This document shows positions 26,964 through 29,581 of a stretch of 64,000 nucleotides of DNA, one piece after another (the stretch's first letter is position 1; the number at the start of each line of letters is the position of its first letter). A model generated the notes under the pieces. It saw nothing but the letters and a program-made list of their open reading frames with translations, searched no databases and was not told the DNA's origin. This DNA is from Bdellovibrionaceae bacterium UBA6502. GTDB lineage: Bacteria; Bdellovibrionota; Bdellovibrionia; Bdellovibrionales; UBA840. A program made the translations under genes and the position numbers. The stretch is from contig DJMA01000007.1 in assembly GCA_002436415.1 (NCBI GenBank), positions 17,912 to 81,911 of the forward strand, given 5' to 3'.

Positions 26964-28262
26964 ATGTCGAACGAAATTCAATACAAACGAATCCAATTAG
27001 AAAATGGCCTTAAAGTGGTTGGTGAGATTCATCCTTACGGGAATGCTGTAAGTTTAGGTTTTGCTTTAAGCCTTGGTTCCAGAGATGAGCAAGATGCTGA
27101 TTTACAAGGTGCTTGTCATTTACTAGAGCATTTGTGTTTTAAGTCGACAGAAAAATATAACTCCTTCGAGTTAGTAAATAAGTGGGAAAGTCGTGGGGGA
27201 GACCTCAATGCTTTTACGGCAAAAGAGTATACTTGTTTTCATGCTTATGGACTAAAAGAAGATTTAGAAATGGGTCTAGATATTTTGACTCAAATTGTTT
27301 TTTATAACAATTGGAGTGAGAAAGATTTTAAGGCCGAGCAAAGTGTAGTGTCTCAAGAAATATTAGTGAGTCATGATAACCCTGAGGACTTTCTCTTTGA
27401 TGACTTTACTTCAAAGTATTTCGAAGGTGGTCCAATGGCTCACCCAATCTTTGGCAGCATTGAGTCTGTTAGAGATATGGATATTGATAAGTTGAGAGCT
27501 TTTCAAGAAATGTACTACCGTCCAGAGAACTGTGTCCTAGCTGTTGCCGGGAATTTCGATTGGGAAGAGTTAATTAAAATACTCCCTAAATTTCTACCAA
27601 AGTCAAAATCAGAATTTATAGACAATAGAGTATATCCTCCGCTTCGCGGAAACTCCTTTTTGCATTTTGAAAAACGTAAATCCCATCACAATCACTTTTT
27701 AATGAGCTATCCTTCCCATAGTTTGCGAGAGGGCAGGTTTTTTGAAAGTAGTATTTTGACCAATCATTTGAGCGGTGGAATGAATTCTTTGCTATTTCAA
27801 AAAATACGAGAAGACCGAGCTCTGTGTTACCAAATTAGCGCCAGTTATGGTCCTAGCCAGCAAGCGGGAATGTTTTCTTTATATTCGTCAACCCAAGAAG
27901 ATAAATTGATTGCCTTGGTAGAAGAGAGCTTGTCTTTATTAAAAGAGATCAAAGAGAATTCATTGCAGCAATCCGAGATAGATGCCAGTGCCGAACAAAT
28001 TCGTTGTGGGCTTTTGCTAGGGGAAACTGACATTGATTCTAGAATGAATAGCCTGATCTATGACGAAATTTTTTCTAGAGAGTATTTGAGCGTAGAGCAA
28101 CTGATTGAAGGTTTGCAAAAGGTAGATAGTGATTCTATGCGAGAATATTTGCAAAAGTATTTTGAACTAGAACGTTCTTCTTTTTACTTTTTTGGAAGCC
28201 TTAACATTAGCACACAGAAGTCTTTAGAATCCGTGTGCTCTCGTTTTATGCTGGATGCTTAA
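26964..28262 (+). CDS. M16 family (pitrilysin-like) zinc peptidase
   Basis: The inverted zinc motif HLLEHLCF (HxxEH) is present. The start was moved to the Met after the pnp terminator. The maximal ORF begins at 26922. Confidence 0.8.
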   Translation: MSNEIQYKRIQLENGLKVVGEIHPYGNAVSLGFALSLGSRDEQDADLQGACHLLEHLCFKSTEKYNSFELVNKWESRGGDLNAFTAKEYTCFHAYGLKEDLEMGLDILTQIVFYNNWSEKDFKAEQSVVSQEILVSHDNPEDFLFDDFTSKYFEGGPMAHPIFGSIESVRDMDIDKLRAFQEMYYRPENCVLAVAGNFDWEELIKILPKFLPKSKSEFIDNRVYPPLRGNSFLHFEKRKSHHNHFLMSYPSHSLREGRFFESSILTNHLSGGMNSLLFQKIREDRALCYQISASYGPSQQAGMFSLYSSTQEDKLIALVEESLSLLKEIKENSLQQSEIDASAEQIRCGLLLGETDIDSRMNSLIYDEIFSREYLSVEQLIEGLQKVDSDSMREYLQKYFELERSSFYFFGSLNISTQKSLESVCSRFMLDA

Positions 28263-29581
28263 GCGATTCTTAGGTTAACAACTTTTTCTTCATTTTCTAT
28301 ATAGTTTGTCGTCAAGCTTGGGTAGTAGGCCTGTCTTAAGTAATCGTTGTATATTAACCATTCTTTAGGGATTTCTCCTTTGAAGAGTATTCCGTAGCGG
28401 TTAAACTCAGAGTTTTCCCAAATAACGTTCGCTTTTAGTTTTACTTCTTTACCATTTAAAACGGTTTTTATAATCACCAATTCACCAACATTCATTTTCT
28501 TTTCTGTGAAAATAGCGGCACCTAACATAGAGGCTTCGATGATTTGTGAATAATTTTTTTCTAATAAGTTTCCAGTCACTAAATCAGAACGTAGGGAGGT
28601 TGGGAAGCGCATATTTGCTCTAGAGCTTTCAGGGCCTGAGTGGCAGACTCCTGTTTCTCTGATTACACTTGGACTTCCGTATATCTTTTTGAGTGCATTT
28701 TTTTCGTCACTACTTAATTGTTCAAAAGTACTTGTACGGTTTTTAAAATACTCTCTCACTGTTTCTGGTTCAATGCTATTGTGCGAAGAAAGAGGGTAGT
28801 CGTGTTCTGGTAATTCAACATGCTGTCTGTCGCGGTATACATACATATAGTGGTAAACATTTTTTTCTATAGGGTAGTTTCTATAGTTGTTTTTCATCTC
28901 ATTGGCAAAATTTTCGTTTTTCTCGTATTTAAATTCCAAGGCAAGCGGGTTGATGCCGTTGTGTTTTACATAAGAGTATTCATTGGCTTCTTCCTTTACG
29001 CTAAGGGGTTTAAAGCAAATGATGTCTTCATAGAAAAATTTAGCCGTATCATTTACCACAGCAACCAATGCGTTGATGTTTCCAACTTCTTGGCAATATA
29101 AGTGAATAAAGTTAATTACAGGGAACATTAATTTCCCTCTTCTTAGACCAGAGTCTTTGGCGATGGCTAAGCTAGATATTTCTGCGATTTTAGAGTTTCT
29201 CTTTCTAAGTTCGGTGATGTCACTAGTAGCATCAATTGGTAAACCAAAAATACTATCTTGTATGATGGTAAAGGTACCTATTACTTTGTCGAAGTGTTTT
29301 ACAACACAAAGCGTAGTGGTAGGTAAAGCGTGATATTTAGTGACTCTTAATCCTGATGTTTCCTCATCAATCAATTTCGTCTCTAAATAGGTATCGTGCA
29401 AAATTTTGTAGGCTTGTTCGATTTCTTCCTTGCTTTCAGCCACTTTAATTTTAATTCCTGGGATGTAGGAATAATTTAATTTCAATTGAGATCGAATGAT
29501 GGGAACTCTTAGTTTTGCTGGTAGGCGACCGATCAACTTGTAACTTCTTCGTAACACTTTTTTTACCAAACTCGAGTACAT
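28259..29581 (-). CDS. fusion protein: N-acyl amino acid synthase-like (FeeM/OlsB/autoinducer-synthase-type GNAT fold) N-domain plus C-terminal PilZ domain
   Basis: The N-domain has KIAEISSLAIAKD, matching the E-[IV]-S-R-L-A-V type motif of this acyltransferase fold. The C-domain has RANMR (RxxxR, aa 321-325), then EASMLG 24 aa later (the D/NxSxxG position), then the PilZ-barrel-like LKANVIWENSEFNRYGILF. Confidence 0.5.
   Translation of the reverse strand: MYSSLVKKVLRRSYKLIGRLPAKLRVPIIRSQLKLNYSYIPGIKIKVAESKEEIEQAYKILHDTYLETKLIDEETSGLRVTKYHALPTTTLCVVKHFDKVIGTFTIIQDSIFGLPIDATSDITELRKRNSKIAEISSLAIAKDSGLRRGKLMFPVINFIHLYCQEVGNINALVAVVNDTAKFFYEDIICFKPLSVKEEANEYSYVKHNGINPLALEFKYEKNENFANEMKNNYRNYPIEKNVYHYMYVYRDRQHVELPEHDYPLSSHNSIEPETVREYFKNRTSTFEQLSSDEKNALKKIYGSPSVIRETGVCHSGPESSRANMRFPTSLRSDLVTGNLLEKNYSQIIEASMLGAAIFTEKKMNVGELVIIKTVLNGKEVKLKANVIWENSEFNRYGILFKGEIPKEWLIYNDYLRQAYYPSLTTNYIENEEKVVNLRIA

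Follow-up and report, generated by a model that had tools for sequence, protein, structure and literature searches.

A PilZ-fused N-acyl amino acid synthase beside a ThiF-like gene in a Bdellovibrionaceae genome: a candidate c-di-GMP-controlled entry to acyl-oxazolone-type lipids

Does an enzyme that joins a synthase of N-acyl amino acids to a domain resembling receptors of cyclic di-GMP (c-di-GMP) work alone, or does it open a longer pathway whose first step is under second-messenger control? The question is raised by gene P0001 in a stretch of 64,000 nucleotides from Bdellovibrionaceae bacterium UBA6502 (assembly GCA_002436415.1, contig DJMA01000007.1, positions 17,912 to 81,911 of the forward strand), called here the window. 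A first-pass annotation of this DNA placed the open reading frame (ORF) and several peptide motifs at 28259-29581, and all of them are located there, on the minus strand. [quoted passage not shown] The first-pass annotation did not notice that the neighboring ThiF-like gene recurs as a partner, which would put P0001 at the start of an acyl-oxazolone-type pathway. To the whole explanation, i.e., two modules, gating by c-di-GMP, and coupling to ThiF, we assign a probability of about 0.55.

Domain composition of P0001 and its family

The start of P0001 is supported by a 99%-identical cluster of 440 amino acids (aa) and by 41–44%-identical homologues (433–440 aa), all sharing the MYS... N-terminus. 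An AlphaFold2 model built on an alignment of 28 homologues (mean predicted local distance difference test score, pLDDT, 85.8; predicted template modeling score, pTM, 0.87) shows a GNAT-like alpha/beta domain at aa 43–216, helices at 225–309, a barrel at 326–400, and a helix at 406–419. Conservation values below refer to these 28 homologues unless the wider family is named.

The N-terminal half had been assigned to the FeeM branch of the GNAT fold, and this is borne out by both profile and structure. The Pfam FeeM profile (PF21926) matches aa 56–195 with E 2.9e-25 and 89.4 bits against a cut-off of 27; the profile of the 28 homologues matches FeeM of the Protein Data Bank (PDB 2g0b) with E 1.1e-11; and the top Foldseek matches of the model are the 2g0b chains (E 4e-9, TM 0.72–0.77 on the target), with the N-acyl-homoserine lactone (AHL) synthases BjaI and LasI, and then generic GNATs, ranking below. 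The segment KIAEISSLAIAKD occupies aa 131–143. Glu134 and Ser136 of the motif KIAEISSL are invariant, and in the comparison of the family profile with 2g0b Glu134 aligns with the Glu of the ...LAEV... motif of FeeM; it also aligns with Glu103 of P0093, a Nas354-like protein, and is the counterpart of Glu95 in FeeM, which is catalytic there, and of Glu103 in Nas354. The linker has conserved columns of its own (N241, P258, F278, F279, and Y301). It belongs to the NAS module, because the match of P0001 to positions 27–277 of the fused model PRK14852 (989 aa) covers the linker region.

The C-terminal half is matched by Pfam PilZ (PF07238) at aa 321–400, the score being 18.9 bits for full-length P0001 and 21.1 bits when this half is searched alone, slightly short of the cut-off of 22.5. 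Though P0001 itself scores under the cut-off, the PilZ assignment of the first-pass annotation holds: PilZ is matched at E<=0.01 by 25 of the 28 homologues (best 2.9e-9), the family member P0131 reaches 30.3 bits, and the barrel of the model resembles the PilZ domains of BcsA, Alg44, 4xrn, and MapZ (Foldseek, TM 0.66–0.75 on the target), with c-di-GMP-bound structures among the matches. At an overall identity of just 23–44%, every sequence has R325, S351, and G354, and at least 90% have R321. The loop before RxxxR (aa 311–320) has a pLDDT of 55, as anticipated for the mobile c-di-GMP switch loop of PilZ domains.

The second part of the motif, EASMLG, begins 24 residues past R325 and aligns to DVSLHG of PA4608. 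Its Glu in place of Asp or Asn had been taken as a possible sign of altered or lost binding; however, among the 177 of 224 family members that keep RxxxR...xSxxG, this site is occupied by Glu in 76, by Asp in 53, and by Asn in 25, so that Glu is the commonest residue and not a lone case of decay. Since the ligand-contact residues are selectively retained at 23–44% identity, binding is probably kept in most members, P0001 included. The genome encodes six GGDEF proteins and 13 further PilZ proteins, and c-di-GMP is therefore plausibly present. Control of N-acylation by c-di-GMP is thus an idea supported by profiles, fold, and motif conservation, and we consider it rather likely that the PilZ domain of P0001 binds c-di-GMP and modulates catalysis.

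The fusion itself is already published and common. The first-pass annotation knew of no characterized example, but the same layout was reported for Nas343 and Nas354, N-acyltyrosine synthases with a C-terminal PilZ domain isolated from a metagenome (Thies et al., 2016, Sci Rep 6:27035, PMC4897644). There, the NAS domain spans residues 1–200, an unassignable linker 200–278, and PilZ 279–394; expression in E. coli gives N-acyltyrosines, chiefly N-myristoyltyrosine; activity is lost in the E103A mutant, in which Glu103 of Nas354 is replaced; and regulation by c-di-GMP is the authors' proposal (PMC4897644). No later literature on Nas354, or on NAS together with c-di-GMP, was found after this paper. 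Homology to Nas354 was judged indirectly, via the Nas354-like protein P0093: it carries GQIAEVSAL, which the Nas354 mutagenic primer encodes, its Glu falling exactly on position 103, and matches P0001 with HMMER E 2.7e-27 and ~27% identity over NAS and linker.

When 1.84 billion representatives are searched exhaustively, the family numbers 1,948 clusters at E<=0.001, of which 221 reach E<=1e-30; most have 400–450 aa and align through the PilZ region. The fusion is widespread, and at 50% identity the family has ~1,900 clusters. The named members, e.g., those of Roseateles and Aquabacterium, are annotated merely as GNAT family N-acetyltransferases.

Genomic partners and the acyl-oxazolone pathway

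The gene divergent from P0001 encodes a ThiF-like protein that matches PF00899 with E 2.3e-43 and the NCBIfam equivalog PRK08223 with 384.6 bits (cut-off 266). It matches two fused models too, in each case in their ThiF part: PRK14851 with 272 bits and PRK14852 with 234 bits (positions 312–591). As PRK14852 is matched by P0001 as well, a Rosetta-stone link between the two proteins is suggested. The order within PRK14852 is FeeM (27–277), ThiF (312–591), and a nitroreductase-like part (from ~616), while P0118, a 949-aa protein found in the search of representatives, shows the opposite order: an S-adenosylmethionine (SAM) methyltransferase (aa 63–217), ThiF (249–495), FeeM (588–744), and a PilZ-aligned C-terminus. 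Hence, there are two independent ThiF–NAS fusion architectures. A full-length tri-domain fusion of the PRK14852 type was not seen above the cut-off in 201 sampled genomes of the phylum.

Separate genes show the same association. In the set of 61 relatives, nine genes of the NAS family have a PRK08223-type ThiF gene no more than ~2.5 kb away, in various orientations (G000, which is the window genome, G001, G004, G005 (twice), G036, G043, G051, and G054). Three further pairs, in G229, G158, and G134, come from other families of the phylum, and bring the pairing to at least ten genomes besides the window genome. It spans several genera and is also present in a syntenic metagenomic relative (L001) and in a metagenomic homologue with an unrelated context (L002). 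Adjacency in varied orientations and unrelated contexts, together with two independent fusions, argues for a functional link between NAS and ThiF.

Both parts of this partnership, ThiF and oxidase, belong to a characterized pathway. In Pseudoalteromonas rubra, OxzA, an N-acyltransferase, together with OxzB, a ThiF–nitroreductase protein, produces tyrazolones (de Rond, Asay, Moore; bioRxiv 10.1101/2020.06.11.147165; review PMC12596934). In Mycobacterium tuberculosis, the acyl-tyrazolone pathway consists of TyzA, TyzC, and TyzB (Rv2336, Rv2337c, and Rv2338c, respectively): TyzA, with a FeeM/BjaI-like fold, N-acylates Tyr or Phe; TyzC, a flavin oxidase of the nitroreductase superfamily, desaturates the product; and TyzB, a ThiF homologue, performs the final ATP-dependent cyclization (Grigg et al., 2023, PMC10404671). 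The feature common to such loci, an N-acyltransferase gene beside a ThiF-type cyclase gene, is present here, the two genes being divergent and 285 bp apart, and the ThiF neighbor is predicted, by analogy, to correspond to the cyclase of these pathways.

Profile scans of the window proteins reveal no flavin oxidase within the window. A second NAS–PilZ gene (419 aa) is found elsewhere in the genome (3.70 Mb, 55 contigs), on contig C21 (L029 5973-8344). Its PilZ motif is degenerate (RSAKR...DISKNM), and it converges, with a 4-nt overlap, on a gene whose 371-aa product has matches to PRK14851 (nitroreductase part, positions 328–678), the Rv1355c family, and Acg-type flavin mononucleotide (FMN) oxidoreductases; because of these matches, we regard it as a TyzC-like oxidase. 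The same NAS–oxidase pairing occurs in a genome of the same genus (G001), and a second PRK08223-type ThiF is encoded on contig C51 of the window genome. NAS, oxidase, and ThiF stand in one cluster in two genomes (G004:C5 and G036:C5), and most cluster-embedded NAS genes retain RxxxR...xSxxG. In G004, the one genome of the same family with the whole cluster, the NAS–PilZ frame (G004:C5:100829-102070; L022 7779-9083) is interrupted by a TAA, so that two ORFs of 167 and 261 aa are called, which may reflect a pseudogene or an assembly error. A single-protein scan for related loci had one match only, a metagenome-assembled genome of the same genus of Bdellovibrionota. A link between a PilZ-bearing NAS and the oxazolone pathway was not found in the literature searched.

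Table 1. Features of the NAS–PilZ/ThiF locus (window coordinates)
Feature	Position	Strand	Evidence
NAS–PilZ gene P0001, 440 aa	28259..29581	-	ORF list, translation
FeeM-type NAS domain, GNAT-like fold, aa 43–216	28934..29455	-	Pfam, family profile, Foldseek
Glu134 codon, predicted catalytic glutamate, in KIAEISSL	29180..29182	-	conservation, alignment to FeeM and to the Nas354-like P0093
Helical linker, aa 217–320, family-conserved	28622..28933	-	model helices, alignment columns
PilZ domain: six-strand barrel aa 326–400 and C-terminal helix aa 406–419	28325..28621	-	profile, homologues, fold
RANMR, the RxxxR motif (R321, R325), aa 321–325	28607..28621	-	alignment
EASMLG, the (D/N)xSxxG position, aa 349–354, E349 at the D/N site	28520..28537	-	alignment
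Divergent intergenic region, 285 bp, between NAS–PilZ and ThiF operon	29582..29865	.	ORF coordinates
ThiF-like E1 adenylyltransferase, 294 aa; TyzB/OxzB-ThiF-like predicted cyclase	29866..30750	+	profiles, co-location
RidA	30747-31124	+	4-nt overlap with ThiF gene; Pfam, NCBIfam
DUF218	31121-31732	+	4-nt overlap with RidA gene; Pfam, NCBIfam

Clustering of the ORFs of the loci above reveals further recurring genes, namely those of a nitroreductase-like protein (340–420 aa, sometimes fused to ThiF, as in the 652-aa protein of L027), a SAM methyltransferase, and an XRE-type regulator. Separate methyltransferase genes lie between NAS and ThiF in L026 and beside ThiF in L028; given these and P0118, some versions of the pathway may methylate the product. 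Genes of XRE-type helix-turn-helix proteins are found beside ThiF in several loci, one of the proteins having a weak DUF4423 match, and in L002 an AraC-type regulator gene lies between ThiF and NAS (L023 5641-6639, L028 8266-9228, and L002 3882-4175). Both types are candidate transcriptional regulators of the pathway.

In the window, ATGA overlaps of stop and start codons link ThiF to RidA (30747-30750) and RidA to DUF218 (31121-31124). This trio is kept just in the syntenic L001 and is absent from the other ThiF–NAS loci. Enamines and imines are the substrates of RidA, and a dehydro-amino-acid (enamide) intermediate occurs in the oxazolone pathway; a role of RidA in this pathway is conceivable. 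On the other side, the stop codons of P0001 and of a convergent M16-family peptidase gene (26922-28262, plus strand) overlap by 4 nt (28259-28262), which leaves no space for a terminator between them; the same overlap is found in L001. The Rfam scan of 27500-32500 for riboswitches and other RNAs gives zero matches at E<=1, and scans of the region for promoter and terminator consensus sequences give counts at chance level. An ORF of 438 aa (34797-36113, minus strand) without a Pfam match at E<=0.001 lies back-to-back with a phosphatidylserine decarboxylase gene and is kept in L001.

A different context surrounds the NAS–PilZ homologue of the Burkholderiales bacterium Roseateles aquatilis (NIOF01000002.1; L003, 1-8177), which has no ThiF gene nearby: it is preceded by genes of a histidine kinase, of a response regulator of the sigma-54 type, and of a tetratricopeptide repeat (TPR) protein of 952 aa, and overlaps a downstream gene of a trypsin-like peptidase. 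This set resembles the regulators PrsK/PrsR/PrsT of PEP-CTERM systems. The trypsin-like protease encoded in the window at 31880-32785 is unlike the Roseateles protein (E 0.043 over 20 residues), and a link to it was rejected.

Proposed mechanism and its alternatives

The mechanism proposed here starts from what is observed: which domains are present, how their motifs are conserved, and how the genes are linked and fused. The FeeM-type synthase would attach a fatty acyl chain, taken from acyl-ACP (ACP, acyl carrier protein) or acyl-CoA, to a free amino acid at its amino group, with Glu134 as the predicted catalytic base; by analogy with every characterized relative, the amino acid is probably aromatic (Tyr, Phe, or Trp). 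The PilZ domain would bind c-di-GMP via R321/R325 and S351/G354, and its occupancy would be relayed through the conserved helical linker, so that the first committed step would be activated or inhibited by the second messenger. The N-acyl amino acid could be the end product (a surfactant or an antibiotic-like lipid); more likely, it would go on to the ThiF-like enzyme of the divergent gene, there to have its free alpha-carboxylate adenylated and the oxazolone ring closed, as by TyzB and OxzB, while the TyzC-like flavin oxidase encoded elsewhere, beside the paralogous NAS gene, would desaturate the intermediate. We consider it somewhat more likely than not that the product feeds the ThiF cyclase and, with the second locus providing the oxidase in trans, ends as an acyl-oxazolone-type lipid.

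Several points weigh against this mechanism. Some concern the pathway: at about two-thirds of the NAS-family places in the relatives, ThiF is missing from the surrounding 2.5 kb, and the Burkholderiales branch occupies a different gene context; the window lacks a flavin oxidase, and as ThiF of TyzABC acts last, on the desaturated intermediate, the pair in the window may be incomplete by itself; and TyzA and OxzA have the fold of P0001, their sequence identity to FeeM-type enzymes being low. The rest concern the ligand, i.e., the PilZ score of P0001 that falls short of the Pfam cut-off, E349 standing in place of the canonical D/N, and the fact that c-di-GMP binding is a prediction for every family member, Nas343 and Nas354 included. 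The places lacking ThiF and the missing oxidase would fit a stand-alone synthase with the N-acyl amino acid as its end product (surfactant, antibiotic, or signal lipid), ThiF serving elsewhere together with RidA and DUF218. Nas343 and Nas354 alone indeed yield N-acyltyrosines with surfactant, hemolytic, and antibiotic activity (PMC4897644), many family members have no ThiF nearby, and the genes to which ThiF in the window is coupled in translation are RidA and DUF218 rather than NAS. However, the latter coupling is confined to close relatives, while ThiF adjacency, recurring in different orientations and unrelated contexts and accompanied by two independent fusions, is hard to explain without a functional link. 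The stand-alone enzyme is therefore the less probable, if still realistic, version.

The low PilZ score and E349 would be explained if the C-terminal barrel were derived from PilZ but no longer bound c-di-GMP, serving instead as a structural, oligomerization, or docking module, e.g., for ThiF, the oxidase, or ACP. Degenerate motifs in several ThiF- or oxidase-linked relatives and in the paralogue of the same genome (EMSVYD, NISPIW, and DISKNM) mean that the barrel is able to persist without the signature. Still, the four ligand-contact residues are kept in a set of otherwise strongly diverged sequences, and the full signature is retained in 177 of the 224 family members, which makes a non-binding barrel in P0001 unlikely. 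Even less probable, to the point of being marginal, is another acyltransferase of the same fold branch, of the LuxI type (AHL synthase), the OlsB type (ornithine lipids), or the PEP-CTERM/exosortase-associated type. Foldseek does find BjaI and LasI, some homologues have weak matches to Acetyltransf_5, OlsB, or TIGR03694 (the last in 14 of the 28), and the Roseateles homologue stands in the kinase–regulator–TPR context described above; yet in both profile and fold searches FeeM ranks far ahead, and P0001 has zero matches at E<=10 to the TIGR03694, OlsB, and autoinducer-synthase models (Pfam and NCBIfam profiles). The exosortase-associated NAS class was rejected, given the lack of a TIGR03694 match in P0001 and zero matches to Exosortase_EpsH in the 98%-complete genome.

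If the proposed c-di-GMP-gated, ThiF-coupled mechanism is right, the conserved c-di-GMP receptor domain predicted for a widespread NAS subfamily implicates its lipids in a surface or lifestyle program controlled by c-di-GMP. The locus is a clean, small example of this from a predatory phylum, and opens no new category. A bolder extension, which we regard as tentative and rather doubtful, is that c-di-GMP directly switches the first committed step and that the two NAS paralogues are each genetically tethered to one downstream enzyme: the copy with the intact PilZ domain to the ThiF cyclase, and the copy with the degenerate one to the flavin oxidase, which might reflect enzyme-specific complexes. 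If true, this would be the first second messenger that allosterically gates a lipid N-acyltransferase, and would give a physiological handle on the purpose of oxazolone lipids, e.g., in surface, biofilm, or predatory lifestyle switching.

Comparison with known systems

FeeM, an ACP-dependent N-acyltyrosine synthase from soil environmental DNA (PDB 2g0b), is the best match of aa 43–216 by both fold and profile, and shares the conserved catalytic Glu with P0001. It differs in being a single domain of ~200 aa with neither linker nor PilZ, and its identity to P0001 is ~18–21%. For the other module, a parallel is given by cellulose synthase BcsA and by Alg44, where, as in P0001, a biosynthetic enzyme carries or cooperates with a PilZ barrel bearing RxxxR and xSxxG; their C-terminal PilZ arrangement is a precedent for direct allosteric control of catalysis by c-di-GMP. 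However, BcsA and Alg44 are membrane polysaccharide synthases, whereas P0001 is a soluble-looking lipid N-acyltransferase and a predicted c-di-GMP binder.

The OxzAB and TyzABC systems contain the same enzyme set as the window genome, i.e., an N-acyltransferase of the FeeM/BjaI fold, a ThiF-type cyclase, and a flavin oxidase of the nitroreductase superfamily; the likeness of TyzA and OxzA to P0001 is one of fold and description. The set is clustered or fused in relatives, but split over loci in the window genome, and the papers on these systems mention neither PilZ nor c-di-GMP (bioRxiv 10.1101/2020.06.11.147165, PMC10404671). The "hypothetical protein" models PRK14852 (989 aa) and PRK14851 (679 aa) show the corresponding fused architecture, which three separate genes jointly reproduce here; unlike P0001, the fused models have no PilZ domain.

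The nearest relatives in overall design are Nas343 and Nas354, which have in common with P0001 the three-part layout and the catalytic Glu in IAE(I/V)S. The differences are in the PilZ motif, canonical in the Nas354-like P0093 (RRHSR...DVSQEG) vs. RANMR...EASMLG in P0001; in a 31-residue basic N-terminal extension of P0001; in the source, Bdellovibrionota for P0001 vs. a probable betaproteobacterium; and in the gene context, the nas genes being reported as lying outside any biosynthetic operon, whereas P0001 is paired with a ThiF-like gene.

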